Notes: generated by a model from the sequence alone, not told the origin. A stretch of DNA of 64,000 nucleotides from a virus (IMGVR_UViG_3300029288_000100:46099-110098); one strand, 5' to 3'. Shown: positions 37,424 through 56,181, counted from the first letter of the stretch. A program made the numbers and translations.

Positions 37424-39103
37424 TCAGTTCCCGTCCGGGGTCGGGTATACGTGGTTGAGCACGCAGCACCAGTTGCCAGTGCAGTAGGGCGTCCCGTTGA
37501 CCCCAGCCTCTCGGTTGTAGGGGACAGGCGGCACCGGGGAACCCGGCGTCCGCACGCGACAAAGGTAGTCGTACTTGCGGTAGCGCGACGCGAGGTGTGC
37601 GTCGTACGAGTATCCACCATCAACCCCCGCCAGTGGTGGCCATGGCTTCTGCGCCTCAGACAGCACAACCGTCAGGTGATCTGCACCACAACCGGGATCA
37701 CGGACCCCGGTGAAGTTGAGCGCCAGCATGATGTCGCCGCGTGCTTGGCTCTTGTAGGCCTGATCAGAGAGTAGATTCGCAGTGCTGCACCACCCCGCTG
37801 GAGCTGAGACGGTGATTGAGCGCGTCACTGGCAGCGCCCCCACAATCACGGCTGTCAGGTGATCGAATCTCTCTGTTGTCTGTACTGGAGTGGTGCCGCT
37901 TAGCGTCACGCCGTCCACCGTGGTGGCAACGAACATCACCTTCGCGGTCGTCGCCGCATCAGCCACCACAGAGAGCCGCTGGCCGTTGATCAGATTGCCG
38001 CGGTTGTCGGTATAGGTGCGGATCCCCCTGGTTAGCGCGGCCGCTGCTAGTGTCGTGACGATCTGCCCTCCTGTCGTGCTGGAGATCGTGATCGTCCCGG
38101 TAGGTGTCCAGTTCGCTGCTGCACCAGCGAACGTGCTCCAGTTGACCCAACCAACCACCGGAGTTGTACCGTTCGACGCGTTCGTGGTGATCGTTTCCAC
38201 TCGCGGGAACCCGAGCGTGTCGAACCCGTAGATTACGACACCTTTCGCCTTGTCGTTCGCGACCGCACTCGAGCTTGCGACCGTGAGCGTGCTACCGCTC
38301 GTCGGCTGGTTGGTCACATCGGAGTCCAGTCCGGCGAAGCTCGGGCTGGTCCAGGCCGACAGGTGCATCCACCCGCGGTTGTTCGACACGAATTGACAGC
38401 AGCGCGGCTGGTACACCGCTCCACTGTCAGATCGACCCGGACACCCTGCTTCGGTGCTGCACCCCGCGTCTGGTATGAACTCCAGTGATCCGCAGCCACG
38501 TTTACATCCAATCGGGTCGTTCCACTGGGCATGATTCGCGTCGACGATTCCACCACCGTCTGCCGGAATGTACGGGCCCCGTGAACAGCGCGGAACCACC
38601 CCGAGCGCGACGCACCCAGCGTCCGTGCAGAGCGTCCCCGCGTCGTTACCAGTCTCCCAGGGCGACGGGTCACTCCAGGTTGGCGCCGACTCCGCGAGAC
38701 CAAGCCAGTGAACACTGTCCACGACGCGCGTCCCGTTCGTCCCGCGGAAGATCAGTTTGTGCCAACCCAACCCCAGTGGGACGTCGATCGACCACCGGCC
38801 CGCCTGTGTCAGCGTTGTGGAGGCGACCAGGTTCGCGAAGTCCCCGTCATACACTTGGAGCAGGGTGTTCGCCGCGCTGACGTGCCCGACGAGTTTCACG
38901 ACCCAGATCCTTGCTCCGCTCTCAGTCGAGGCGTCGGTCGGACGCTTGGCGATCCCAAGGTCACTCAGCATCGAGAGACACTGCCCTCTGTTGACGTTCG
39001 GCGTGAGCCGGGAGACAGGCTCGATGAAGATCACACCCAGCACGATCGCGGCAGTCGTTACCGCGCCGACCGCCACGCCGAAAATGATCCGCTTGGTTGA
39101 CAT
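37424..39103 (-). CDS. Membrane-anchored Cys-rich secreted protein with DAG motifs
   Basis: N-terminal TM, repeated DAG/DGG motifs, Cys clusters, Thr-rich beta domain; lower GC3 than neighbours. Confidence 0.75.
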   Translation of the reverse strand: MSTKRIIFGVAVGAVTTAAIVLGVIFIEPVSRLTPNVNRGQCLSMLSDLGIAKRPTDASTESGARIWVVKLVGHVSAANTLLQVYDGDFANLVASTTLTQAGRWSIDVPLGLGWHKLIFRGTNGTRVVDSVHWLGLAESAPTWSDPSPWETGNDAGTLCTDAGCVALGVVPRCSRGPYIPADGGGIVDANHAQWNDPIGCKRGCGSLEFIPDAGCSTEAGCPGRSDSGAVYQPRCCQFVSNNRGWMHLSAWTSPSFAGLDSDVTNQPTSGSTLTVASSSAVANDKAKGVVIYGFDTLGFPRVETITTNASNGTTPVVGWVNWSTFAGAAANWTPTGTITISSTTGGQIVTTLAAAALTRGIRTYTDNRGNLINGQRLSVVADAATTAKVMFVATTVDGVTLSGTTPVQTTERFDHLTAVIVGALPVTRSITVSAPAGWCSTANLLSDQAYKSQARGDIMLALNFTGVRDPGCGADHLTVVLSEAQKPWPPLAGVDGGYSYDAHLASRYRKYDYLCRVRTPGSPVPPVPYNREAGVNGTPYCTGNWCCVLNHVYPTPDGN

Positions 39104-39106
39104 GGG

Positions 39107-40687
39107 CTACTCCTCGAGCGTCAGGGAGGCCGCGCCCCAGGTCAGCAGATTGGCCTGGTCCATCTGACTGTGGACGATCAGGTCCCCGAGGTGCGCGTTG
39201 TAATCCGCCCAGAGCTCGGCGACGAGGGTGGTCAGTGAGGCGAGGTCGGCGGCGTCCGCGGCAGCGACCTCGTGCACGGTGTCGTCCTGCATGTGAACGT
39301 CGGCAGTCCCGGGGTCTGCCGCGGCGACCGCGTTCACGTTGTCGGGCGCGCCATGGACCGCGGGGGGACCACCTTCGAGCACTCGGTGCGCCTCGTACTG
39401 CGCCTTGAGGTCGATGCAGAGTGCGGCGACCTCAAGGAGGTTGACGCAGATTGGCTCAGTGACGACGTCCGTTTCGTCGACCGCCCCGTGCACCCCGCCG
39501 TCCGTCAGGACGCGGTGCGCCTCGTACTTCTCGCGGATCTGGTTCGCGAGCGTCACCGCGGTCCCGATGTCCGCAGCGTCCGCCGCGTCCACCACGTTGA
39601 CGCCGTCGGCCGCCCCGTGCACCCCACCCTCGAGCACGCGGTGTGCGTTGTAGTCATCCTTCATCTCCGTGAGGAGGGCGCAGCACTCCTCGAGCAGCGA
39701 GTCCTCGAGCCGGTGGAGATTGAACTGCGTCTTGATGTCATTGGCGAGGTCCTGCGCGGTCGCCAGGTCCACTGCAGTCGCCGCGGTCACCGCGTTAGCG
39801 TTGTCCGGGTGCGCGTGTACGCCCGGGGTCAACACCCGGTGCATCTCGTACAACACCTTGAGTCGGTTCAGCAGATCGACCTGTGAAGGAAAGTCGTTGG
39901 CTGGATCGACCGCAGCGATGACCGAGACGAAGTCGTCTGAGGCCGCGGTCACAGGGAGCAAGCGGCGCGCGCCCGCCGGGAGGTAGGTCGACCCAGCGAC
40001 GCCCCGCTCGGCCGCGACGATCGCGTCCCCCTGCTTGAACCACAGCGCCCGGTCCGCGACCAGCTCCCAGAGCCCCTCGGCGAGCTGCACGGAACGAACC
40101 GCCATCGAGGCGACGCCCAGCACCTGCCCACCCGTCCCGAGCTTGACCCCCGCGAAGCGCCGCCCGAGCGCGAGCAGAGTGGCCTCAGTCGCGAAGTTCT
40201 CCGCGGAGAGGGAAGCCAGGCTGCCGACCATCGAGAGGAGGTAGGTGAGCACCTCGACGGTCCGGTCCGCGTCGTTCCCCTCATGCTTCGCGTCCCCCGC
40301 CACGAGGACGTCGACCGATGTTGGATTTCCCTCCACCGCGTGGACACGGAGGAGAACAACCCCATCTCCGACGACCAGCGCGAAGCTCCCGTTGTCCGCG
40401 AGCGGCGGCGTGATGTAGCCGGTCGGCACGTACCTCCGCTGCAGCGCGCCCGCGCCATCGCGGTAGCTCGCGAGCTTGAGCTGCTGGAGAGTGACGGTCG
40501 GCGCCGCCCCACCTGCGAGCCGCACGAACCCGGTGATCGTCCGCCAGCCGGAGCAGTTGAGCGCGAGAGCCGGGTCGAGGTCGGCTAGCACCGCGGTGTC
40601 GGGCACGACGGGTGCCCCGACCAGCCTGCGGTGGTAGCGGTACTCCGGTCTGGGGGCGAGAACGTTGTCGTGGCGAGTCGCTTCCAT
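39107..40687 (-). CDS. Probable virion protein with His-containing repeats
   Basis: Repeats of Y(E/N)AHRVL..GVHG..D..N.V.AADA; start MEATRHD at 40687. Confidence 0.75.
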   Translation of the reverse strand: MEATRHDNVLAPRPEYRYHRRLVGAPVVPDTAVLADLDPALALNCSGWRTITGFVRLAGGAAPTVTLQQLKLASYRDGAGALQRRYVPTGYITPPLADNGSFALVVGDGVVLLRVHAVEGNPTSVDVLVAGDAKHEGNDADRTVEVLTYLLSMVGSLASLSAENFATEATLLALGRRFAGVKLGTGGQVLGVASMAVRSVQLAEGLWELVADRALWFKQGDAIVAAERGVAGSTYLPAGARRLLPVTAASDDFVSVIAAVDPANDFPSQVDLLNRLKVLYEMHRVLTPGVHAHPDNANAVTAATAVDLATAQDLANDIKTQFNLHRLEDSLLEECCALLTEMKDDYNAHRVLEGGVHGAADGVNVVDAADAADIGTAVTLANQIREKYEAHRVLTDGGVHGAVDETDVVTEPICVNLLEVAALCIDLKAQYEAHRVLEGGPPAVHGAPDNVNAVAAADPGTADVHMQDDTVHEVAAADAADLASLTTLVAELWADYNAHLGDLIVHSQMDQANLLTWGAASLTLEE

Positions 40688-40771
40688 GGGTGGAACCTCC
40701 ACCCGCACGCTATCCGCGCCGATGGGACGTCGCCGAGCAGAATGAGCACGTCGCGCTGGATACAGGTGGAC

Positions 40772-41542
40772 ATGCCGAAGAAAGCCAAGGACCTGGACCT
40801 GAAGCTGAACGAGGGAGCGCGGGCCCGCGCCGAGCTGGTGGCGCGCGAAGGCCCCCAGGGGGTGGGGGAGGAGATGTCCCGCCAGAAACGGGACGTGGCG
40901 CAGTACCGCGCGGGCCTCGCCCTGCTCTGGGATGATGGGCGCATCCTCGCGGAGACCGGGTGGAGCGCCCAGAAGCTCTCCGCTATCCGAGAGCTGGTCA
41001 GCCAGCTCGACGAGCAGGTCGCAAAGGGGACGGACACCGCGCGTGTCTGGGCGGAGTACCGGGAGCAGCAGTTCCAGTGTGCGCGCGAGCTCGAGGACCT
41101 CGCCGCCATCTTCCGCGGGTCGAGCCAGTTCAACGCGCTCGTCGCCGCGGTGAAGGCGCGCTCGGACATCCTGACCGGGCTCCTCAAGGCCGGGCAGGAC
41201 CTGGGCGTCATCAACCGCGCGAGCAAGAAGATCGAGATCCGCGGCAAGGTGGACGTGAATCGCCTCTCGGTTGAAGAGCTCCGCGTGCACCTCCGGCTGG
41301 AGCTCCAGGAGCTGGAGTCGATGTTGAAGCTCCCGGACGAGCGCAAGCCCCACAAGTTGCTCTCGCGCAGCCCGGCAGACGCCGTCCTGAACCGCATCCT
41401 GAGCGGCGCGGGGAAGTCGCGGGTGATTGAGGCAGAGGCGGAAGCGGTGGGGGAGGTGGACTCGGAGCCTGACCGGGATAGTGAACCTGCCCCGCGGGAG
41501 CCGCGCGTGCGCCGGCTGGCGGAGGACGAGGACGAAAGTTAG
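40772..41542 (+). CDS. Helical phage protein, possible terminase small subunit
   Basis: Good GC3 bias, helical, KKIEIRGKVDV..LSVEEL tail resembles TerS; opposite strand to the module. Confidence 0.55.
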   Translation: MPKKAKDLDLKLNEGARARAELVAREGPQGVGEEMSRQKRDVAQYRAGLALLWDDGRILAETGWSAQKLSAIRELVSQLDEQVAKGTDTARVWAEYREQQFQCARELEDLAAIFRGSSQFNALVAAVKARSDILTGLLKAGQDLGVINRASKKIEIRGKVDVNRLSVEELRVHLRLELQELESMLKLPDERKPHKLLSRSPADAVLNRILSGAGKSRVIEAEAEAVGEVDSEPDRDSEPAPREPRVRRLAEDEDES

Positions 41543-41742
41543 CCGCCCTCGTCTGCGCCCGGGCCACGCTGCGGATTCCACTCGGCGAGGTCCTCTGCCT
41601 TCACCAGCCAAGACCGCCCGACCTGGAATGCTGGCAGCTTTCCGTCCTGCACCGCCTGGAAGACCGCGATCCGGGAACACCCCTTCAGCTCTGCGACCTC
41701 CGGGAGGGTGTAGAGCTCTTTCTTGATCCGCTTCTTGGGCAT
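41539..41742 (-). CDS. HTH_17 / excisionase-like DNA-binding protein
   Basis: LYTLPEVAELKGCSRIAVFQAVQDGKLPAFQVGRSWLVKAEDL. Confidence 0.85.
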   Translation of the reverse strand: MPKKRIKKELYTLPEVAELKGCSRIAVFQAVQDGKLPAFQVGRSWLVKAEDLAEWNPQRGPGADEGG

Positions 41743-42689: not shown

Positions 42690-42952
42690 CAGACCACCTC
42701 CTCGTCAAGGAGCTCGGCCTCCGGGTCGAGCTCACCGTACTCCAGCCGGATGCGGAACGACTCCAGCTCCTCCCGCATCCGGTGAAGCACGTGCAACTGG
42801 AGTTGCAGCTCCTTCCAGAGATCCCCCTGTTCCGGCCCCCCGCGGCGCTTCGCATCGCTTTGGCGCCTCCGGAGGTCCGCGACCCACCACCACTGGCGCG
42901 GGATCTCGCGCTCCAGGTCGGCGATCTCCGCCTCCAGCTCCCGCTTCGTCAC
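42689..42952 (-). CDS. Hypothetical coiled-coil protein
   Basis: GTGA overlap with the DUF4942 stop. Confidence 0.55.
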   Translation of the reverse strand: MTKRELEAEIADLEREIPRQWWWVADLRRRQSDAKRRGGPEQGDLWKELQLQLHVLHRMREELESFRIRLEYGELDPEAELLDEEVV

Positions 42953-43782
42953 GCGCGCCCCCTGTCCTCCGCGGGAGGGAGGGCCCCTGGATGGTGCTTC
43001 GCCACGATCTCGTTCAGTCGGTCGACCAGGTCCGGCCGCAGAAAGGTCAGATGCCCATTGCTGTTCTTGAAGCACCGGATGGAGATCAGGTCCGCAATCG
43101 CCACCGGCTCAACCGGGAACCGGGTGTCGAAGGTGATCACCTCCCGGAGCGCGTTGTAGGCGCCCTGCCGGTGATCGGGCTCGGGCCTGCCGTCGAGGAC
43201 CGACATCACGCGGATCAGGTCGTCGAGCCCGTTGCAGCCCGCCAAGCTTGGCCCAGTGTGATACTTCTGCCCGCCGCTGCCCCAGACCTCCACGATGCGC
43301 CGCAGGACAATCCGCTTACCGAAGAGGCGCGGGTTGTTGGTCTTGTAGTCCCAGCTCAGGTGACGAAAGACCTCCACCACCCCGCGCTCGAACATCTCCC
43401 GCCGGGCGGCGAAGAGCTCCTTGAAGGTTTCCTCGATGTTCTCCTGGGTAAGCGCCGGCACCCGGCGCTCGTAGATGTCTTTGGTCCACTGCTCGCGCGC
43501 TTTGGCGTCCATGAAGGTCCTCAGGCCGCTCTTGTTCATGAGGAAGTCCCAGGCCGTCGCGTCCACCCGCTTGACCAGCGCCTCGACATCACCCGGGAGG
43601 TAGGCGTGCACCCGCTGGCACTGCAGACTTGGCACCGCGTCATCTGACCCGAAGGCCGCCTCGCTCAACTCGCCCACCTCGATGAGCAGTGTAGCGATCT
43701 GGCGTAGCCGCTCTGCAATCGCGTTGCGCTGCGCCAGCAGATTGCTGATGGAGACGGACGGCACCAAGTCGGTCGCGTGCAT
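42949..43782 (-). CDS. DUF4942 domain protein
   Basis: AWDFLMNKSGLRTFMDAKAREQW, MFERGVVEVFRHLSWDYKTN, CFKNSNGHLTF. Confidence 0.88.
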   Translation of the reverse strand: MHATDLVPSVSISNLLAQRNAIAERLRQIATLLIEVGELSEAAFGSDDAVPSLQCQRVHAYLPGDVEALVKRVDATAWDFLMNKSGLRTFMDAKAREQWTKDIYERRVPALTQENIEETFKELFAARREMFERGVVEVFRHLSWDYKTNNPRLFGKRIVLRRIVEVWGSGGQKYHTGPSLAGCNGLDDLIRVMSVLDGRPEPDHRQGAYNALREVITFDTRFPVEPVAIADLISIRCFKNSNGHLTFLRPDLVDRLNEIVAKHHPGALPPAEDRGRA

Positions 43783-47244: not shown

Positions 47245-47712
47245 TCAGCGCTCGCGGTCTGGAGCGGCGGAAGCTGGGGTGGGCTCCTCAGTGGTCGTCT
47301 CACCCGGCACCCGCGCCTCTTCCCCGCGGCTCGAGGAGGCCCAGAACCTCTCAGCCGCGTCGACCAGTGCCACCCACCCACCGTGACCGAGCGCCCCCAG
47401 CCGACGCTGCAGATCTGCCCCATCCACCCCCCACTTGGTGTCCAGGCGGTTGAGGGAGATCGCGTCGGCGATCTCCAGAGCAGCCCAGTGTGCCGGGGTG
47501 TCGTGCATCCAGCAGCCGTTGAGCGCGTCCATCACGAGTCGCCACTCGTCGACCGAGAGCTGCGGCAGGTCGCGCCGACAAACCTCGGCGTAGCGACGCA
47601 GACAGCGCCGGATCACCTCGCTCCGGTCCGCGAAGTTGCTCTCTCGCTCCTCCAGGATCGTCCACTCGGGGTCAAGTAGACGGATGCTCGTCGGTTTGCG
47701 GTCGTTGGCCAT
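47245..47712 (-). CDS. Ribbon-helix-helix domain regulator
   Basis: N-terminal PTSIRL..RSEVIRRCLRRY RHH pattern plus a helical C-terminal domain. Confidence 0.7.
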   Translation of the reverse strand: MANDRKPTSIRLLDPEWTILEERESNFADRSEVIRRCLRRYAEVCRRDLPQLSVDEWRLVMDALNGCWMHDTPAHWAALEIADAISLNRLDTKWGVDGADLQRRLGALGHGGWVALVDAAERFWASSSRGEEARVPGETTTEEPTPASAAPDRER

Positions 47713-48020
47713 CAGCGCACCTCCCCGTTCTGGACGGCTCTCTCGACCCGCTCCCAGTAGGCCCGGTCCTCGGTCTCACCGACCACCTCCAACGCGGTAT
47801 GCTCCGCTGGGTCACTGTAGATCTTCGTGCCGTCCTGCCACCTGTAATTGGCAGCCTCTTTTTCGGTGAGGACGTCGCTCTGCCGGCGCGCGGACAGCGT
47901 GCCCTGGCTCTCGCCCAGCTCGGACAGGTGGGCGTCCAACCAGGCCTCGCCCTCGGAACGAGTGGCGACGTGGCGCCACGAGAACAGCGACGATCCTGGG
48001 AGTCCGAATCTGGCGATCAT
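47712..48020 (-). CDS. Hypothetical phage protein
   Basis: GGAGGTG RBS; TGATG coupling. Confidence 0.65.
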   Translation of the reverse strand: MIARFGLPGSSLFSWRHVATRSEGEAWLDAHLSELGESQGTLSARRQSDVLTEKEAANYRWQDGTKIYSDPAEHTALEVVGETEDRAYWERVERAVQNGEVR

Positions 48021-48343
48021 CAGCGCACCTCCACCGGGATCGACACCCACAGCTCAGCCTCGGGCGACCAGCCCCCACCGCGGCAGGGCCGGCCCAGGGT
48101 CATCTGGTAGTGCGCGGCAGTCTTATGGCCCCGTTCCACGGCGTAGCCGTCGCTGCGCGGCCCGCCGCAGACCTGCAGCCCCGTGGTGCGCTCGACTGAC
48201 CGGACCACCGCGTCAATCGGGCTCTCGCCGTCCTGGGCCACTGCGTAGGTGGCGAAGGCCAGCCCGCTCAGCTTGCGCCCCCACCTGGAAAAGTTGATCC
48301 GCTGTCGTCCCGTCATCTGACCCATGGTACCCTCCGTCATCAT
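48020..48343 (-). CDS. Hypothetical phage protein
   Basis: First gene after the AT-rich gap; GGAGG RBS before an internal Met. Confidence 0.65.
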   Translation of the reverse strand: MMTEGTMGQMTGRQRINFSRWGRKLSGLAFATYAVAQDGESPIDAVVRSVERTTGLQVCGGPRSDGYAVERGHKTAAHYQMTLGRPCRGGGWSPEAELWVSIPVEVR

Positions 48344-48349
48344 GCTATC

Positions 48350-48404
48350 AGTGTAGCACGGCCGTAGGACAGGGCAAGTATATTTGTATGACAGATGTAA
48401 TACC
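48350..48404 (-). promoter_or_regulatory. Putative promoter (TTGCCC-N16-TACACT) with phased GTAnnAC repeats
   Basis: GTAGCAC 48353, GTAGGAC 48364, GTATGAC 48386, GTAATAC 48397 (11-bp phase). Confidence 0.55.
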
Positions 48405-48420
48405 GGTGAGATTAAAGCGC

Positions 48421-49059
48421 TTACTCCCAGGCCTCAGAGAACTCCTGGTCCGCGAACGCCTCCGCGAGCCCTGACACCTGCTTCAACCGCAGCACCTCGT
48501 CCGGGTCCATCCCGAGCTCGCGCGCGATCCACACGTCGTCGTGGTTCCTCCGCGAGAGCTCCACCACGATCTCGCTCATCGCGGCCACCTGGTGCTGCCC
48601 GCGCGCCCGGTTGTGCCGGATGGTCGAAGCGATGCGGTCGCTCCGGTCCCCACGCTCGCGGTTGATGAGCGTGACCGGCAACCGGCCGTGCACCCGCTTG
48701 CGCACCACCCTGGAGTTCCGCCCGACGAGGTTGCGGTGGAACCCGTCCACCACCACGTGTTCGCCCGGGTCCTCCTCAAACGTGACGATCGGCTGTGTGT
48801 AGCCGTCTGAGACGATGCTGAGCTCGAGCAGCTTCATCTCGGGCGGGGCTACGCGGTTCGGGTTGTAGTCGTTGGCGGTCACCTGATCCGCGGGCACCCA
48901 GATTACGCAGTCCACAGGTTCAGTCGCGAACGGGCTGACCGCGTGCAGGGCGCGGCGCACCCCGTTCAACGCCTCGATCCTGGCATCGCCCTCGAGACGG
49001 GCGATCTCCGCGACCAGCTCCGCCGTCTTGCGCCTCACGGCAGCGTCGTCATGTTCCAT
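48421..49059 (-). CDS. ibrB: IbrB/YbdM-like ParB/Srx-domain protein
   Basis: EPVDCVIWVP, ANDYNPNRVAPPEMKLL, DGYTQPIV, VVDGFHR, ASTIRHNRARG, LGMDPDEVLRLKQ. Confidence 0.9.
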   Translation of the reverse strand: MEHDDAAVRRKTAELVAEIARLEGDARIEALNGVRRALHAVSPFATEPVDCVIWVPADQVTANDYNPNRVAPPEMKLLELSIVSDGYTQPIVTFEEDPGEHVVVDGFHRNLVGRNSRVVRKRVHGRLPVTLINRERGDRSDRIASTIRHNRARGQHQVAAMSEIVVELSRRNHDDVWIARELGMDPDEVLRLKQVSGLAEAFADQEFSEAWE

Positions 49060-50261
49060 TGCTCCCTCCGGCGCCGCATGAGCTCGAGGTACCGCTTGTA
49101 AGAGTCCGGGCTCTTGTGTGGCGCGAAGTGAAAGTCCTTGCACCAGTAGTCGTTGCGCAGAAGCATCTTGCACACTCGCCGCCACGTGGGAGCCGCGTGC
49201 GCCGCCTCGACCTTCCGGTCCGCCTCGTCGGGGATCTCGGTCACCCCACGGTGGTCAGCCCACCACTTGAGCCAGATCGCGATCTTGTTCTCGAAGTGCT
49301 CCCGCATCCGCGGCGGCATGCTCCCGAGGAGCTGCTGCGCGAACGACTTCCAGGTGTGTCCCTCCGGGCAGGACACCTTGATTCGCCCGAGGATGTTCCC
49401 TGCCTCGCGCGCGTACCGCGCCCCCTGGTTTGCGCCGTTCACCCGCGCGACGACGCGCGCCCACGTCTCCGGCTCGATGATGTGAAACAGCCACAGCCCC
49501 TTCCGCTGGTCGTCTCCGTAGGGCTGGCAGATCCGCTGTTGGTGGATCGATAGTCCGGCCTGGTGCATGCGATCGTAGAGCCGGTTGTACGGCCTCTTCT
49601 CCTGCCCGAAGTAGATCCAGATGTCCCGCGTTCGCCAGTCATAGATCGGGTAGGCGTTGAAGACGTTCGGCGTGATCCGCGTCGTCCACTGCAGCCCGTC
49701 CAGTGTCTCCTTCGACGTGCTCTTGACCGTGCGGTAGCGGTTCAGGCTCTCGTCTGCCCGGATGCCCACCAAACACGCGGTGCGCTCGCCCTGCGCGTAC
49801 CACTCGCCGAAGGCCGGGACGAACTCCTCGAACTCCATCCCACGTCGAAAGAACGGGAAGAACGCCTCATCCACCACGCTGCGCGGGTCCGGCTCCCGGA
49901 TCCAGTCTGCTCTGCGGTTCGGATCCCAGCACAGCCATTGCGGCTCAAACTGGCTGACCGCGTTCCGCAGCGACAGCGGCAGCGCGACCCAGAAGAGATC
50001 AACCAGGTCCCGGTAGAGGTCGCAGCACCGGCGGACGTGATCGATCGTCAGGCGGTACTGCCCCTCGAGGTCCACGATCAGGACGCCGAAGCGGCGGCCG
50101 CGCCGGCGCGCCTCATCCGCCGTCAGGTGCAGGAGCACCGACGAGTCCTTCCCACCCGAGAAGCTCACGTATATCCGCTCGAAATGGTCGAAGACCGTCG
50201 CCACCCGCCGACGCGCCGCGGTCAACACGTCGATACCCAGAGGCTTCTTGTTCCCAGTCAT
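49035..50261 (-). CDS. ibrA: IbrA/YbdN-like PAPS-reductase-family protein with DUF3440
   Basis: SFSGGKDS, GIRADESLNR, PIYDW, QRICQPYGDDQRKGL, WRRVCKMLLRNDYWC. Confidence 0.92.
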   Translation of the reverse strand: MTGNKKPLGIDVLTAARRRVATVFDHFERIYVSFSGGKDSSVLLHLTADEARRRGRRFGVLIVDLEGQYRLTIDHVRRCCDLYRDLVDLFWVALPLSLRNAVSQFEPQWLCWDPNRRADWIREPDPRSVVDEAFFPFFRRGMEFEEFVPAFGEWYAQGERTACLVGIRADESLNRYRTVKSTSKETLDGLQWTTRITPNVFNAYPIYDWRTRDIWIYFGQEKRPYNRLYDRMHQAGLSIHQQRICQPYGDDQRKGLWLFHIIEPETWARVVARVNGANQGARYAREAGNILGRIKVSCPEGHTWKSFAQQLLGSMPPRMREHFENKIAIWLKWWADHRGVTEIPDEADRKVEAAHAAPTWRRVCKMLLRNDYWCKDFHFAPHKSPDSYKRYLELMRRRREQWNMTTLP

Positions 50262-50656
50262 CGCCGCCACTCTAGGTGCGTGGTCCCGAGCTTGAAGGTC
50301 CGCCGCGGCGCGAACCCAAGCTTGAGAAATAGCCGACTGCGGAAGGCGAACACGTCCACCACGTCAGCCGCTCCACGCGCCACATCGAAGCGAACCCGCA
50401 CGAGCTCCTCCCCCAGCCCCCGACCGCGGAATTCGGGCAGGACGAAGCACCCCCCTAAGCGCGCACGGAGCGGCAACCTCCGCACGTAACCGCACGCGAC
50501 GACCCGCCGCTCGTCGAAGGCGGCGAACCACGTCACCTCCGGGTCGCTCGATGCAACGCTCTCCAGCGGCGGGAGGTCGCGCAGAGTCACCCCCTCCCGT
50601 CGCGCGGCTCGAGCGAGCGACCGAACCGCCCCAAAGCTGACTTCAGTCACGTGCAC
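50258..50656 (-). CDS. GNAT family acetyltransferase
   Basis: FVLPEFRGRGLG acetyl-CoA motif; LFLKLGF. Confidence 0.85.
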   Translation of the reverse strand: MHVTEVSFGAVRSLARAARREGVTLRDLPPLESVASSDPEVTWFAAFDERRVVACGYVRRLPLRARLGGCFVLPEFRGRGLGEELVRVRFDVARGAADVVDVFAFRSRLFLKLGFAPRRTFKLGTTHLEWRR

Positions 50657-51372
50657 CGCGGAACCTCGGGGTAGTAGCGCCGCTCCCACTGCCCACGTCC
50701 GCACCCGGTCCCGCGCTCGTCGCCGATTCCGTCGACGCGGATCCGCGCGCGGTCCCAGAACCCACCCTCGCTCATCGCGTAGGCCGGGTGCACCGGGAGG
50801 TCGTACTTGCGGAGGTAGGCGAAGACGAGCGCCGCGTCCCACCAGACGATCGGCGCGCATGAGCTCGGCGAACTGCACCCGAAGCGTCGGGCGCGCCGTC
50901 TACGGCGCCCGGACTCCCGCGCCCGCAGCCCGAGAATCCGCCGACCCAGCTCGTCGGCCTCGCGGAAGAACAGCCGACAGTCCTGCTCCCAGGTCAGGTC
51001 TCGCCACCCCACACCGGCTGGCAGGCATGTGTCCGTGACGACGATCTCCTGGTAGTCGACAGGAAACCTCCGCAGAAAAACATCCCGGACCGCGGGGCAG
51101 TCGGGGTTGTGCGAGGGGTCGTAGCGGACCCAAACGAAGGGCACCCGCAGACCCGCGCGCACCGCGAGGTGCGCGACGACGACGGAGTCCTTGCCCCAGC
51201 TCACCGCAACGAAGCACGTTCCGTCGAGCCCCGCGAAGCGTTGAAGCTCCGCGAGCGCCGCCTCCTCCCTCCGCGCAAGGTGTTCCGAACCGGCCAGCAC
51301 CTGATCAGTCTGCTCCAGGCGAGCCCAGACCTCAAGGTCGATCGCGGTGTGCCGTGGGCTCGGGATCAGCAC
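50647..51372 (-). CDS. CysH-like (PAPS reductase family) protein of the type IV-B locus
   Basis: VAVSWGKDS PP-loop, ILGLRARES, PIVWW..VFAYL..LPVHPAY; no C-terminal ECG(L/I)H catalytic motif. Confidence 0.88.
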   Translation of the reverse strand: MLIPSPRHTAIDLEVWARLEQTDQVLAGSEHLARREEAALAELQRFAGLDGTCFVAVSWGKDSVVVAHLAVRAGLRVPFVWVRYDPSHNPDCPAVRDVFLRRFPVDYQEIVVTDTCLPAGVGWRDLTWEQDCRLFFREADELGRRILGLRARESGRRRRRARRFGCSSPSSCAPIVWWDAALVFAYLRKYDLPVHPAYAMSEGGFWDRARIRVDGIGDERGTGCGRGQWERRYYPEVPRCT

Positions 51373-51623
51373 CGGTCGTGTCCCTTCAGCACCGTCAGGA
51401 TCTGTGGTGCCCCGCGGTCGTTCTCGGCCACCCGGAACCGCAGTCGACGCGGCCTCCGCCCGCGGTAGAGCCAGACGCCGGGCTCGAGCTCCTTCACCCG
51501 GCGCGCGGTCTCGGACTCGCGGATCAGCGCCGCCAGCGCCAGTTCGTAGGTGAGCTGTGGATCCACCCGCTCGACGTACCGCCGGACCGCGTGCGGCGTG
51601 ACGAACCAGCGCCCGGCGATCAC
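51366..51623 (-). CDS. Small protein with RelE/DUF4258-like RNase pattern
   Basis: VTPHAVRRYVER and C-terminal QILTVL; overlaps both neighbours. Confidence 0.6.
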   Translation of the reverse strand: MIAGRWFVTPHAVRRYVERVDPQLTYELALAALIRESETARRVKELEPGVWLYRGRRPRRLRFRVAENDRGAPQILTVLKGHDRC

Positions 51624-52261
51624 AGGAACGTCTCCGGAACAGCGCGCCAGTCGGACCCCTCCGCGCGCCAGTACGGGTGCATGATCCGGCAGAAACGGAG
51701 GTACAGCCAGTCGGGGGCCAAATCGCGCGGGAGCGGACGCGCCGGCGCCTCGTCACAGGTGAACACGGATCGGTCCTCCTCGATCTCGACCACCTCCCAT
51801 CTGGCGACCCACCCGTACCCCGACGCCCGCTTCGCCCCGAGCGCGAGCACGTGTCGAAGAAGCGCGCGAACCTCCGCGACGTCGCCAAATCCCCACCACG
51901 TCAACCGCATGCCCGCCGGCAGCGCAAGGCGCAGCGGAACCCAGAACGCCTTGTAGCGCCCGGACGTCGGGAGCTTCGCGGCGGAGGTCAGAAGCACCAG
52001 GTCACGCAGGTCGGGAAGCTTGCGCGTCCAGCGCCGGGCCTGGAACTCCTGCACGACGAGGTGCGCCTCCGAGGCGTGGTAGAAGCCCTGCAGGTGTAGC
52101 TGAAGCGGGATCGGGAGGTCCACCGCGTCGTGGTACTCAAGCTCCGGCGGTGGGAACCTGCGCAGCCCCGCAACCACCGCCGCGAGGAGCGCGTCAAGCG
52201 CAATCGGGTGGGTCGCGACCAACGCTTGCGCGAGCGTCGCCCTGACAACGAACGGAGTCAC
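51620..52261 (-). CDS. csf3: Type IV CRISPR Csf3 (Cas5-like RAMP)
   Basis: IALDALLA, PIPL..FYHAS, GRYKA, GDVAEVRALL, G-loop LGAKRASGYGWV..W. Confidence 0.85.
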   Translation of the reverse strand: MTPFVVRATLAQALVATHPIALDALLAAVVAGLRRFPPPELEYHDAVDLPIPLQLHLQGFYHASEAHLVVQEFQARRWTRKLPDLRDLVLLTSAAKLPTSGRYKAFWVPLRLALPAGMRLTWWGFGDVAEVRALLRHVLALGAKRASGYGWVARWEVVEIEEDRSVFTCDEAPARPLPRDLAPDWLYLRFCRIMHPYWRAEGSDWRAVPETFL

Positions 52262-53334
52262 CGGATCGCCGTCAGCCACGCGAGGAGGTCGGTGCGGTTC
52301 ATGACCACGTGGTCGAGGTACGGCCCCGCGAACTGCCGCGCTGTTGCCTCGATCCGAGCATCCTGATCCAGCGCGCGAAGCCCCTCGGCGAGGGAGCTCG
52401 TCTCCCCCGACGCATGGACTGCCCGCAACGCGACAGCGCCGTGCCCTGTCGCCCCCTTGGCCCCGAGCTGTCCACGCGCCCCAAGCGCGAGGAGGGCACA
52501 GACGAGGGCTGAATGTTCGAGCGGCGTCATCAGGACGCCGCCCACCTGCCAGAGCCAGCGCGCGCCGGCGCACACCGCCTCATAGGCGAAGATCATCTGG
52601 TTGCTGTCCGTGGCGCCCTCCTCCGAGGAGAGGCTCTGCTCCCACGCATCACGGTCCTCGGGGCGAAGCGCGTGCCGCGCAAGCAGTCCACGCCGAGCAT
52701 CATGGCGGGTCGCCTGCCGGCGCTCTCGGTACTCCTCGGCCGGCTGGAGGTCGCCGGCGAGCTCGGTCAGCGGAGGACAGAGCAGCCGCACCCGCCACGC
52801 GTTCTGCGCACAGAGCAGGATCGCGTACGCCACCTGGAGCTTGCCCGGGATGAGGAGCGACCCGAGCCCGCCCCCGAAGAGACCCAGGTAGGGGAAGAGC
52901 TCGAGCGCGCGGCGGTACCCGGCAACATCCAGCGTCTCCGCCTGCCGCCCGAGGGACCCACCCGAGAGCAGGAAGTGCTGGGCCGCCACCGGCAGGGAGC
53001 CGAGCTCAAGGTCCAGCGTCCGGAGCGTCAGGTGCGCCAAGGCCTCGCGGAGCGCGTGGCGGAGGGAGTTGCCCGTCAGGCAGGGCACGTCCTGCGGCAA
53101 ACCTTGCGGGTCATCCGGATCGACCACCCGCTCCGTCATGAGGAGCGCCTCATTCCCGACAGTCCCGGAGGAATGCACGATCGGGGTCAGGCTGGTGATC
53201 AGCACGTCGTAACGCACCGTCATCAGCTCGCCGTAGCGGGTCGGAGCCGCCACCGCGCCGGGCGACAGGTTCGCCAGCGTTTCGCAACCATTGGGATTCT
53301 CGGCTTCCACGTCGGCCACTCTCCTCCTCTTCAT
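52258..53334 (-). CDS. csf2: Type IV CRISPR Csf2 (Cas7-like RAMP); alternative start at 53223
   Basis: SLTPIVH, VPCLTGNSLRHALR, LLSGGSL, FPYLGLFGG..IPGKLQV, QMIFAYE, LGAKGATGHG. Confidence 0.9.
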   Translation of the reverse strand: MKRRRVADVEAENPNGCETLANLSPGAVAAPTRYGELMTVRYDVLITSLTPIVHSSGTVGNEALLMTERVVDPDDPQGLPQDVPCLTGNSLRHALREALAHLTLRTLDLELGSLPVAAQHFLLSGGSLGRQAETLDVAGYRRALELFPYLGLFGGGLGSLLIPGKLQVAYAILLCAQNAWRVRLLCPPLTELAGDLQPAEEYRERRQATRHDARRGLLARHALRPEDRDAWEQSLSSEEGATDSNQMIFAYEAVCAGARWLWQVGGVLMTPLEHSALVCALLALGARGQLGAKGATGHGAVALRAVHASGETSSLAEGLRALDQDARIEATARQFAGPYLDHVVMNRTDLLAWLTAIR

Positions 53335-53732
53335 GGAACGTCCCTCTCCTCGATCTGGCGGAAGGCGGACTTGACGGACTCCCACCGCACGCGCGCCAGC
53401 GCCGCCACGCCGCAGATCTCCTGCGGCAGGAGCTGGAGTGCCCGACGCTCGGATGTCTCCGGGTCGGGCGGCAGTGCGCGGACTGTCTTCCGCAGCGCAC
53501 CCCAAGCCGTCGTGACGGACGTCTTGGACGGCGCACCAGTCGTTGGGACCTGCAGCGCGCGCAGGACGAAGGTCAGCCAGCGCTCGAGTCGCGTGCTCTG
53601 GCGCGCCCCTGCCACCATAACGTTCGGGATCCGCTCCCACATCGTCCGGCGCTCCCCGGGGTAGGCGCGAACCAGGGCGACAGTCATCTCCGCCCATGTT
53701 GTGAGGAGTCGTTCCCGCTGTTCATCCGTCAA
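53331..53732 (-). CDS. Putative Cas11-like small subunit
   Basis: 133-aa all-helical ORF between csf1 and csf2, the Cas11 position in type IV-B loci. Confidence 0.6.
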   Translation of the reverse strand: MTDEQRERLLTTWAEMTVALVRAYPGERRTMWERIPNVMVAGARQSTRLERWLTFVLRALQVPTTGAPSKTSVTTAWGALRKTVRALPPDPETSERRALQLLPQEICGVAALARVRWESVKSAFRQIEERDVP

Positions 53733-54451
53733 GACTTCACCTCCAGGTGGAGGGCGAGCTCAAGCTCCGCCCGGCCGCGGATCACCCGGACCCGCTCCTC
53801 CAGGGGACGCCAGCGATCTAACCCGGCCTTGGCTATCCGCCGCGAATCGTACCGCCCAGTCAGGATCTCATCTTTGGTGAACCCGAGCGCGAGCAGCTCC
53901 CGGACGGGCGCCAGCGTCGTCCAGTGTGATCCATCCAGCGTCAGCGCGGCGAGCTCGGTCTCAAACACGACCAGAGCAGCCGTCTGCCTGACAACGTTCA
54001 CCGACGCGCGGGGGATCACGTGCTTGCGCCCCGAGGTCGGAACCGCCGCGAACCAAGAACTGCCCGACGGCAACTCGAGGCAGACGAGGAGCGCGGCGAG
54101 GACCTCGGCGACGTCCCGCTTCAGGAAGCGAAGCCAGGTCCACTCGGAGTCGACGCGCCGAGAGCAGACGTGCGCCTCCAGCCGCAGGCACTCCGGAGAA
54201 CCCGGTTTCCCGGACCGCACCCAGGCGCAGGGCTCGCAGACCACGGCGTTGGGTCCGCCCGGCCCGTGCCACAGATCCCAGTCGGTCGCAGAGGGCGGAA
54301 GCCAGTCTCGCCAAGGCGCGGAGCGCGGCGCCGGCAACCCGCAAATGTGGCAGGTGGGAACCGGGCCGCTGGAGGAGCTGAACCCGGGGAGCGCGGGGGA
54401 CCCGGCCAGACGGAATAGGACACGGACCGGGAAGAGGGATTTGTCCAGCAC
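53729..54451 (-). CDS. csf1: Type IV CRISPR Csf1 (Cas8-like)
   Basis: CHICG..VCEPC Zn finger, SGRKH motif, LGFTKDEI.TGRY. Confidence 0.8.
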   Translation of the reverse strand: MLDKSLFPVRVLFRLAGSPALPGFSSSSGPVPTCHICGLPAPRSAPWRDWLPPSATDWDLWHGPGGPNAVVCEPCAWVRSGKPGSPECLRLEAHVCSRRVDSEWTWLRFLKRDVAEVLAALLVCLELPSGSSWFAAVPTSGRKHVIPRASVNVVRQTAALVVFETELAALTLDGSHWTTLAPVRELLALGFTKDEILTGRYDSRRIAKAGLDRWRPLEERVRVIRGRAELELALHLEVKS

Positions 54452-54478
54452 GTGAGTAGGTATCCAGGACGAGTCACA

Positions 54479-55292
54479 CTAGCCTTTCGCAACTCTTAGA
54501 CTCTTGGGAATGTGCGCTGGCAAGCAATCCCAGAAGCTCAACCTGCCCTCTCGAGCCGATTGAAGGCTATCGTTTCGCAACCATTGCGCTCCAGGGACCT
54601 TTTTAGGGAAACCACCCCGCGGATCGGGGGCGGGTAAGGCACGGTCTGCGCACCCCCACCTACCTTGCCTACATGGCCGCACCCCCACCCCTCATGTACT
54701 ACATGGTAGGACATACACATGCCTCTGCTCGCCCCATCGCGGGCGAGTCCTCCCTGCCAGTGCGCGCCGCCCCCGGTCACCCAGGTCTGTGGAGTTCCAA
54801 GGCTTCGATGTCCGCTGTACACATGGGTTCCCTTGTGTACAGGGAAGGCTAGTGATTACTGAGGGATGACCCGGGAAGCGATGGACCCGGCAAGAGTGCG
54901 ACGCCCTCAGCACAGGGAGGTGGGCGGTCTACCTGGACGCCCAATATCATACATGTAGGACAACAAAGGTACTGCTATACCGAAATGCCCGGCGACCAAG
55001 GGGCGCGCAAGACACCCCGGGGAATAGAAGGGCAGTAAGAGCTGGCGGGAAGGAGCAGCAAGACGAAGGCAGGGGTCAGCTCAGGAATCCCAGGGAATTC
55101 AGCTTGCAGTGTGCCCTCTAACGTTTCGCAACCATTAGAGTTACAAGAACCCGAGCTTACGTCCCTGGCGGCATGCGACTGCGAGGAGATCCCATAGAGG
55201 ATATCTTCACATCGCGCCACTCGATCGATTCTCTCTTCGGGGGGCAAGCCCCCCGAACCCCCCGCCTTGCGCCAGCAATTACGAAAGGCTAG
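54479..55292. repeat. Non-coding leader with four copies of a 21-bp quasi-palindrome (fifth copy at 53274-53294) and several hairpins
   Basis: Copies at 54479-54499, 54567-54587, 55118-55138 and inverted at 55272-55292; core CGTTTCGCAACCATT exact in three places. Confidence 0.75.
55236..55257. terminator. Perfect 10-bp hairpin TTCGGGGGGC-AA-GCCCCCCGAA
   Basis: About 30 nt after the stop of the NDT-like gene; no U-tract, so terminator function is uncertain. Confidence 0.4.
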
Positions 55293-55822
55293 CGGAAGGG
55301 GTGGAGAAGCGCGAGCGGGAGCCTCCGAGAGTAGCCGCATGCAACCATCAGATTCACCTCAAGCTGTGTGCGGATCCCCTCGAGCGCCTCCCGCGTCACC
55401 GGGGCGACGTTCGTCTCCAGGGAGCGAAGCTGGGAGACAGCCTCCAAGACCCGGGCATGGAGATCGTCGTCCGTACTGGGCTGACGCTCTGTCTGGAGCC
55501 ACTCGGCGAGAGCAGCCAGTGTGGAGAACCTCGGGATCCCCAGGCGCCCAGCTTCCTCATACTCTCCTCGGGCGCCCCGGCTCTCCGTCCACCTCTCCAC
55601 GAGGAACACGGCATCGCACCGGCGCAGGAGCTCGAGCGTCGCGGCGTACCAGAAGTCCTCGTCCTGGATCCCGCTCAGGTGCTCCGTGCTCTTGTGCGGA
55701 CAGAGGGGGACAGCACCGAGCCTCGTCACCTCCGCGGAGGCTTCCTCCGCCCGCAGGACGTTCCGGTGTCGCTCCCAGTCGCTCCCGGCGGAGAACGGAC
55801 CCGCGATGTAGATGACCTTCAT
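55289..55822 (-). CDS. DUF4406/DUF1937-like (nucleoside deoxyribosyltransferase fold) protein
   Basis: VIYIAGPF, PLCPH, LLRRCDAV..W.ESRGARGE..A.RLGIP. Confidence 0.85.
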   Translation of the reverse strand: MKVIYIAGPFSAGSDWERHRNVLRAEEASAEVTRLGAVPLCPHKSTEHLSGIQDEDFWYAATLELLRRCDAVFLVERWTESRGARGEYEEAGRLGIPRFSTLAALAEWLQTERQPSTDDDLHARVLEAVSQLRSLETNVAPVTREALEGIRTQLEVNLMVACGYSRRLPLALLHPFR

Positions 55823-56181
55823 GTCGGTTCCTCCTTCACCAGAAGCCGGATACGCGGTCCGCCGGCACCGGGGAACATCTTCCTCGCCACATCGATCCGG
55901 TTACACGCGGCGCACAAGCCCTGTGGCTCGAAGTGCGGCGCATCGCAGTGGACGCAGACCCGCAGGTGCTCGCCGGCGGCTACCCGACGAATCGCCTCCG
56001 CGGCGCGGGCGACCGCGATGTCCAGCGTAGGGTCGTCAAACCATAAGACCTGATTCGGGAGCAGCCCGATGCCCACCTGGTACCGGAACTCGCCAAGGGA
56101 CGGAGCAAGGGTCCGGTGACAGCGCTCGATGCGGAAGAACTCCGGGTGCCTCAGGATCAACTCCAGGTCGTCCAGCATCAC
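55819..56181 (-). CDS. Hypothetical Zn-finger protein
   Basis: CVHC..CAAC; GGAGG RBS. Confidence 0.6.
   Translation of the reverse strand: MMLDDLELILRHPEFFRIERCHRTLAPSLGEFRYQVGIGLLPNQVLWFDDPTLDIAVARAAEAIRRVAAGEHLRVCVHCDAPHFEPQGLCAACNRIDVARKMFPGAGGPRIRLLVKEEPT

Follow-up and report, generated by a model that had tools for sequence, protein, structure and literature searches.

Of the widespread CRISPR-Cas subtypes only IV-B is without known function, and reviews see its unexplained CysH-like partner as the key to it (PMC8175902, PMC7038947); what, then, might such an effector do when it shares a phage operon with further enzymes and with the IbrA/IbrB pair? The question is raised by a stretch of viral DNA of 64,000 nucleotides (nt) (IMGVR_UViG_3300029288_000100:46099-110098; hereafter the window, positions being counted from its first letter unless a locus is named), in which csf1, cas11, csf2 and csf3 are followed by an open reading frame (ORF) of 85 amino acids (aa), a CasCysH-type PP-loop gene, a GNAT gene, ibrA and ibrB. 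That this operon encodes a full subtype IV-B effector (Csf1, Cas11, Csf2, Csf3) without array, together with the signature CasCysH, is well supported. Comparison with sister loci presents the partner slot behind csf3 as modular, occupied by CasCysH alone, by CasCysH with IbrA-(GNAT)-IbrB, or by a B12 radical S-adenosylmethionine (SAM) enzyme. Enzymes of each of these types serve elsewhere in nucleic-acid modification, which narrows the function of IV-B to a testable hypothesis.

Gene content of the locus

The window is part of an IMG/VR virus record of 110,098 bp from a landfill metagenome (CheckV 100% complete). It encodes terminase, portal, protease, capsid, sheath, tape measure and baseplate, and the 110-kb record contains a tyrosine integrase; judged by these genes the carrier is a temperate contractile-tailed phage, so that the locus was rightly called phage-borne in the initial annotation, made from the sequence alone. 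The nine ORFs occupy positions 48421-54451 of the minus strand, where they had been placed at the outset, and each overlaps the next without gaps, as had been claimed; a correction concerns the start of the cysH-like gene, which is GTG at 51372, position 51369 being CTG. With the best-supported starts the overlaps at the eight junctions, taken from csf1 towards ibrB, come to 4, 4, 4, 4, 7, 4, 13 and 25 nt, and neither terminator-like nor sigma-70-like (promoter-like) sites were found on the coding strand within the block. Since overlaps of 4-25 nt are combined with the lack of such internal sites, the simplest reading of the arrangement is that the nine genes form a single translationally coupled accessory operon. 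DNA of the operon is present only in the source landfill metagenome, and no RNA data set is listed as containing it.

The proposed identity of the csf ORFs was confirmed by matches of Csf1, Csf2 and Csf3 to PADLOC type IV profiles (Table 1). Csf1, 34-44% identical to its counterparts in ten sister loci, possesses two CxxC pairs (CxxC...CxxC) conserved across the true Csf1 alignment rows, which together with the PADLOC match identifies it as the small Cas8-like protein with zinc-ribbon typical of IV-B. For Csf2 the top sequence match in PDB is Csf2 of the IV-B complex 7jhy (1.8e-16), while its match to TIGR03115 (5.8e-15, 55 bits) falls under the 130-bit equivalog cut-off; Csf3, matching TIGR03116 at 1.6e-12, is likewise under the NCBIfam equivalog cut-off, the type IV assignment of both being made by PADLOC. 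Profile searches gave no match for Cas11, a protein 38-43% identical among aligned sister loci. Its AlphaFold2 (AF2) model is a five-helix bundle (predicted local distance difference test, pLDDT, 89.9), for which the top match among 48,161 chains was 7jhy_h, the type IV-B Cas11 (Z 9.2, root-mean-square deviation 3.1 A, 112 residues), the runner-up chain reaching Z 5.6; the predicted structure thus argues for the presence of cas11, a gene absent from IV-A. Neither the 110-kb record nor any of the sister loci yielded a CRISPR array in a repeat-spacer search seeded with exact 12-mers spaced 45-100 nt apart, and the pair of 31-nt segments at 54479/54567, considered as a candidate array, was rejected as only 71% alike at 88-nt spacing. 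No Cas6 (PF10040) and no Cas1 are encoded in the 110-kb record, and the locus is without adaptation genes and DinG/RecD helicase, so that the initial description of the system as array-less holds for the whole record.

The cysH-like protein belongs to a family with homologues in 439 clusters, whose profile matches PAPS (3'-phosphoadenosine 5'-phosphosulfate) reductase 1sur at 5.6e-7 and in which the PP-loop is invariant across 36 aligned homologues. Three homologues with 48-52% identity were sampled (one on the chromosome of Gemmata sp. SH-PL17, the others on a JGI contig and on a phage contig), and all three lie directly downstream of csf3 in csf1-cas11-csf2-csf3 loci. Because of this adjacency the window gene, which also matches PF01507, is a true CasCysH, the Cas-associated cysH-like gene expected beside IV-B effector genes, as placed by the three sampled neighbourhoods. 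Two cysteines of the window protein, C92 (NPDC) and C172 (TCAPIGWW), are conserved in 90% or more of the 36 homologues; as context, reviews stress that the C-terminal Cys, catalytic in metabolic CysH, is missing. The chromosomal IV-B locus of Gemmata sp. SH-PL17 (L024:3194-7738) reads csf1-cas11-csf2-csf3-HTH-206aa-cysH, where HTH denotes a helix-turn-helix gene, and a GNAT gene (L024:2253-2726) is located just upstream of it on the opposite strand.

The GNAT protein combines the fold (36 bits with PF00583 against a 20.7-bit cut-off) with an acyl-CoA motif of the R/Q-x-x-G-x-G/A type, RGRGLG. IbrA, with 349 representative clusters at E<=1e-30, has the PAPS-reductase PP-loop domain followed by DUF3440 and retains SGGKDS. 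A GNAT-IbrA fusion was considered for the 535-aa IbrA relative P0139 and discarded, its N-terminal extension matching neither GNAT nor any other family. IbrB is the ParB/Srx-fold partner expected beside ibrA, the two genes overlapping by 25 nt; window IbrB alone gave no Pfam match, its homologues match PF02195 ParB_N, and the family profile matches the N-terminal domains of ParB/Spo0J/Noc chains at ~0.01 over the DGFHR region, this motif being invariant in the IbrB alignment. Among cultured phages devoid of csf genes, Pseudomonas phage Amjad_SA (L018:1632-3590) has a superfamily 2 (SF2) helicase (ResIII/DEAD) directly adjoining an ibrB-x-ibrA cassette, and in Microcystis phage Mwe-JY13 (L019:6562-7971) a helicase of the same kind is two small genes away from it; x is a small uncharacterised gene between ibrB and ibrA, and both IbrAs are 53-56% identical to that of the window. 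The sole SF2 helicase of the window phage is encoded ~50 kb from the operon.

For the 85-aa ORF the first interpretation was not confirmed. Neither Pfam nor NCBIfam (E<=0.1, toxin RNase families of the RelE/DUF4258 type included) nor PADLOC gave a match, and the one weak match was phrog_8252 (E 0.0024), a PHROG of unknown function; a homologue is absent from all sister loci. Modelled by AF2 from its sequence alone, the protein reaches pLDDT 61, and for this low-confidence model no fold match was retrieved by Foldseek or VIA; Atlas scores are below 0.9. Profiles, sister loci and fold search thus lend no support to the label of a small RNase-like gene. Apart from this label the initial annotation survived: the assignments of csf1, cas11, csf2, csf3, CysH-like, GNAT, IbrA and IbrB rest on profile or structure matches, the statement that type IV-B has no demonstrated function agrees with the literature (PMC8175902, PMC7038947, PMC12669027), and the linkage of the genes recurs.

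Table 1. Coordinates of the operon genes, of the leader and of genes replacing or closing the partner slot in sister loci (operon genes in order of transcription)
Feature	Position	Strand	Match or remark
csf1, small Cas8-like large subunit, 240 aa	53729..54451	-	PADLOC typeIV_Cas8 3.6e-15
cas11, small subunit, 133 aa	53331..53732	-	structural match of AF2 model
csf2, Cas7 backbone, 358 aa	52258..53334	-	PADLOC typeIV_Cas7 3.7e-51
csf3, Cas5, 213 aa	51620..52261	-	PADLOC typeIV_Cas5 2.9e-32
85-aa orphan ORF	51366..51623	-	lies where small HTH proteins are encoded in several sister loci
CasCysH-type PP-loop enzyme, 241 aa	50647..51372	-	PF01507 7.4e-8; motifs SWGKDS, GLRARES
GNAT acyltransferase, 130 aa	50258..50650	-	PF00583 8e-9; PF13508 1.7e-7
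IbrA, 411 aa, PP-loop PAPS-reductase fold + DUF3440	49035..50270	-	PF01507 9.2e-15; PF11922 7.1e-33; phrog_2302 2.1e-81
IbrB, 212 aa, ParB/Srx-type domain (DGFHR, RHNRARG) + probable C-terminal HTH	48421..49059	-	phrog_2159 ParB-like 1.5e-70
Non-coding leader upstream of csf1	54452..54974	-	operator-like repeats
B12-binding radical SAM enzyme, sister loci	L004:5444-6925; L006:10400-11866; L010:9438-10853; L015:6694-8124		PF19864 + PF04055
Cas6-like protein, sister loci	L002:14924-15829; L006:11863-12756; L007:5061-5960; L010:10931-11713; L012:7052-7939; L015:8134-8490		C-terminus over Pfam Cas6 cut-off (PF10040, 30 bits)

Recurrence and history of the csf-ibrAB linkage

Close relatives of the window Csf2 are rare and comprise 17 clusters with 50-58% identity, all from metagenome assemblies; IMG/VR and GTDB representative genomes contained no relative when searched with the single sequence or the alignment, and tblastn gave nothing in plasmid or cultured-phage collections. 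The order csf1-cas11-csf2-csf3 is found in every relative with sufficient sequence, and it is the part behind csf3 that varies. In L002 and L012 it consists of cysH, ibrA, GNAT, ibrB, a 300-aa Cas6-like protein and HTH; in the group of L008, L009, L013 and L014, of three small genes, cysH, ibrA, ibrB and a RecD2-like helicase; in L007, of HTH, cysH and the Cas6-like gene. The B12-binding radical SAM enzyme takes the place of cysH/ibrAB in L004, L006, L010 and L015, where it is usually followed by the Cas6-like gene. The latter, coding for a protein of ~300 aa, closes many sister operons, in whose loci no array was found, and is absent from the window phage. The RecD2-like helicase, 780 aa long and directly following ibrB (L008:14443-16785, and also in L009, L013 and L014), recalls the RecD-associated type IV-D variant, and in L004 the radical SAM gene is followed by a gene for a 190-aa polymerase-beta-like nucleotidyltransferase with palm and thumb matches (L004:6932-7504).

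The linkage of csf, cysH and ibrAB is therefore not confined to the window phage: it is met again in L002 and L012 and throughout the L008 group, with Csf2 51-59% identical to that of the window, and since L002 and L012 contain GNAT as well, the possibility that no other genome links GNAT with ibrAB, which would have spoken against the initial interpretation, is set aside. Nothing of this architecture was described in the searchable literature, as had been supposed at first; the publications searched, including the main type IV reviews and the 2025 classification, do not report IbrA, IbrB, GNAT or radical SAM enzymes at IV-B loci.

How the linkage arose was considered from several sides. The flanks of the window cassette share nothing with the flanks of L002 or L008. 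In the Csf2 tree loci with cysH and ibrAB fall into three clades and those with radical SAM enzymes are scattered. Two types of cysH are distinguished, one in the window, L007 and L011 and the other in L002, L012 and L008, the second being 26-29% identical to that of the window; SxGKDS and GxRxxES are retained in both types and in IbrA. In the IbrA tree L002, L012 and L008 form one clade, whereas window IbrA groups with IbrAs of csf-less phages, and its nearest metagenomic relatives (59-60% identity) belong to csf-less IbrA-IbrB pairs in phage early regions. Lastly, GNAT stands on opposite sides of ibrA in the window and L002, the two GNATs being weakly similar (38% over 58 aa). Given the different flanks, Csf2 clades, cysH types, IbrA grouping and GNAT position, at least two separate joinings of the ibrAB cassette to a csf-cysH operon appear to be the simplest history and are likely, even though the approximately unbiased (AU) test was borderline.

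Cultured phages with ibrAB include Streptococcus phage CHPC1230 and Mycobacterium phage Nebkiss. IbrA is encoded in 141 of 50,697 cultured phage records, and by our own estimate, which is not a computed value, its repeated adjacency to csf3 is on that account unlikely to be due to chance. The comparative data as a whole favour a functional tie between the csf and ibrAB modules. At the same time the association is optional on both sides, IV-B loci existing without ibrAB and ibrAB without IV-B.

Possible functions of the assembled proteins

Beyond the observed gene content, coupling, intact catalytic motifs, recurrence and enzyme exchange, the mechanism proposed here is inferred as to the RNA platform, any physical association of the proteins, the substrate and the reactions. 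GNAT, IbrA and IbrB would represent a second phage cassette joined to an operon of IV-B and CasCysH, and the RAMP (repeat-associated mysterious protein) complex would serve as a targeting or scaffold module. In the first step, Csf proteins would assemble on non-CRISPR RNA and thereby form a nucleic-acid-binding platform; in the second, the platform and the DNA-binding IbrB would hold DNA, RNA or a nucleotide while CasCysH and IbrA adenylate one of its groups at the expense of ATP; in the third, GNAT would add an acyl-type group; and the covalent mark so produced may finally protect phage nucleic acid from host defence or alter gene expression. We regard it as possible, if short of an even chance, that nucleic acid is marked in this way by a Csf ribonucleoprotein platform together with interchangeable adenylating enzymes that consume ATP, a DNA-binding ParB/Srx protein and an acyltransferase. 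More tentative is the broader proposal that the Csf complex of IV-B is a platform independent of CRISPR RNA (crRNA), which recruits CasCysH, IbrA/IbrB with GNAT or the B12 radical SAM enzyme in exchange for one another, the window operon then marking DNA or RNA, of the phage or of the host, covalently in several steps. If true, such recruitment would define a new class of Cas-scaffolded modification systems for counter-defence. We favour the platform mechanism because the slot behind csf3 repeatedly takes enzyme types of nucleic-acid modification, their motifs are intact and the joining appears recurrent. A complex prediction for Csf3, IbrA and CasCysH, with CasCysH scored, gave 0.25 relative to a mark of 0.32 and speaks neither for nor against binding.

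A number of observations weigh against the platform mechanism. In every cultured-phage or metagenomic csf-less context examined IbrA-IbrB is a self-standing pair (the window proteins are 33-58% identical to the IbrAs and 52-67% to the IbrBs of the retrieved cultured-phage pairs), and ibrAB is missing from all three sampled CasCysH loci and from L007, so that IV-B function does not need IbrAB. The L008 group has no GNAT, and the place of this gene in L002 is not the same as in the window; what separates csf3 from cysH differs by locus, and the relatives are all uncultured. A single clade of csf-linked IbrAs was not formally rejected by the AU test (p-AU 0.06). Nor was an RNA partner for the Csf complex found: a search of 47500-56000 gave no Rfam family, and the structure of the leader is unremarkable, its fold being no better than that of shuffled sequence (z -0.91).

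Several of these points would be expected if IV-B with CasCysH and GNAT-IbrA-IbrB were two independent cargo modules placed on one transcript by accretion in a phage accessory region, each acting alone. The self-standing IbrAB of csf-less phages, among them the nearest relatives of window IbrA, the common occurrence of CasCysH loci without ibrAB, and the variable gene order and intervening genes all agree with this account, which we nevertheless hold to be somewhat less likely than the platform mechanism: the joining probably took place at least twice and in different flanks, the genes are translationally coupled, and the slot behind csf3 repeatedly receives nucleic-acid-type enzymes rather than random cargo.

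Another reading assigns to the operon the part of an expression switch, IbrA/IbrB co-activating prophage genes and Csf binding transcripts or DNA without cleavage in the manner of type IV-A silencing. Database records do label the pair "co-activator of prophage gene expression", a name given in E. coli, and according to the 2025 classification type IV-A works by transcription inhibition and IV-B is without nuclease (PMC12669027). HTH genes occur within sister operons, and operator-like repeats flank the operon of the window. Their core, AATGGTTGCGAAACG, is found on the minus strand in exact form at 54571-54582, at 55122-55133 and inside the csf2 5' end at 53278-53289, and as a variant at 54483-54494; if a single mismatch is allowed, the minus strand of the whole 110 kb contains no copy beyond these four, and the plus strand has one variant, GTTGCGGAAC, at window position 16017. 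The motif around the core is a 21-bp quasi-palindrome, of which part is repeated in inverted form at 55279-55292; sister loci lack it, and it resembles the operator of a dimeric regulator. Still, the catalytic motifs of both PP-loop enzymes and of GNAT are intact, which suggests chemistry rather than plain binding, and there is no guide RNA or array to confer sequence specificity, so that a switch of this kind seems improbable. Very unlikely, finally, is an anti-CRISPR sponge in which Csf sequesters crRNAs of the host, or further small guide RNAs, for inactivation by the enzymes, an idea raised in PMC7038947 and 10.1101/2023.08.02.551345 and compatible with the heterogeneous small RNAs bound by the JS623 IV-B complex (PMC7937560) and with a phage as carrier, but deemed unlikely on grounds of complexity by PMC7038947 itself and at variance with the DNA-type ParB/Srx nature and HTH of IbrB.

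Neighbouring genes and known systems

Outside the operon, a DUF4942 protein (3e-49) is encoded at 42949-43782 on the minus strand, 4.6 kb downstream of ibrB; a second DUF4942 gene (L025:1919-2908) lies just upstream of an unrelated IV-B locus, which may be due to chance. Two adjacent large ORFs of the minus strand, 37424-39103 (559 aa) and 39107-41680 (857 aa), located between the terminase and accessory regions, have no PHROG or Pfam match.

As for known systems, IV-B has already been recorded on phages and archaeal viruses (PMC10848311). Bathyarchaeia 'Fuxiviridae' and a Methanoperedens virus resemble the window phage in possessing a viral IV-B effector with a cysH-like gene (PMC10848311; 10.1101/2023.08.02.551345); they differ by a mini-array (Fuxivirus) or by having no extra enzymes, and IbrA, IbrB and GNAT are unmentioned in the corresponding papers. 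Phosphorothioation by DndB/DndC relies on the same pairing of folds, ParB-like and PAPS-reductase-like PP-loop, and IbrA gives partial matches to DndC profiles. The candidate assignment to Dnd/Ssp was nevertheless rejected: the score with TIGR03183, the DndC equivalog, is 29 bits against a cut-off of 290, and no cysteine desulfurase (Aminotran_5) is encoded in the 110-kb record. On account of these two findings the locus is not a Dnd system; DndD/E were likewise not seen in the operon, nor SNF2 in the record. With the IV-B reference complex of Mycobacterium sp. JS623 (PDB 7JHY) the window shares the four core genes, their order, Cas11 and the CasCysH downstream of csf3, as well as the lack of array, Cas6, Cas1 and nuclease and the residence on a mobile element. 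In contrast to the reference, its Csf2 is divergent (by TIGR03115 score and by the tblastn result given above), and the locus is carried by a tailed phage and extended by the orphan ORF, GNAT, IbrA and IbrB. The IbrA/IbrB of E. coli prophages and phages, in turn, have in common with those of the window the PAPS-reductase domain with DUF3440, the ParB/Srx protein, adjacency and coupling; unlike the standard pair, that of the window is embedded within a Cas operon, behind GNAT and a second PP-loop enzyme, and the locus thus ties IV-B to a second common, uncharacterised phage pair.

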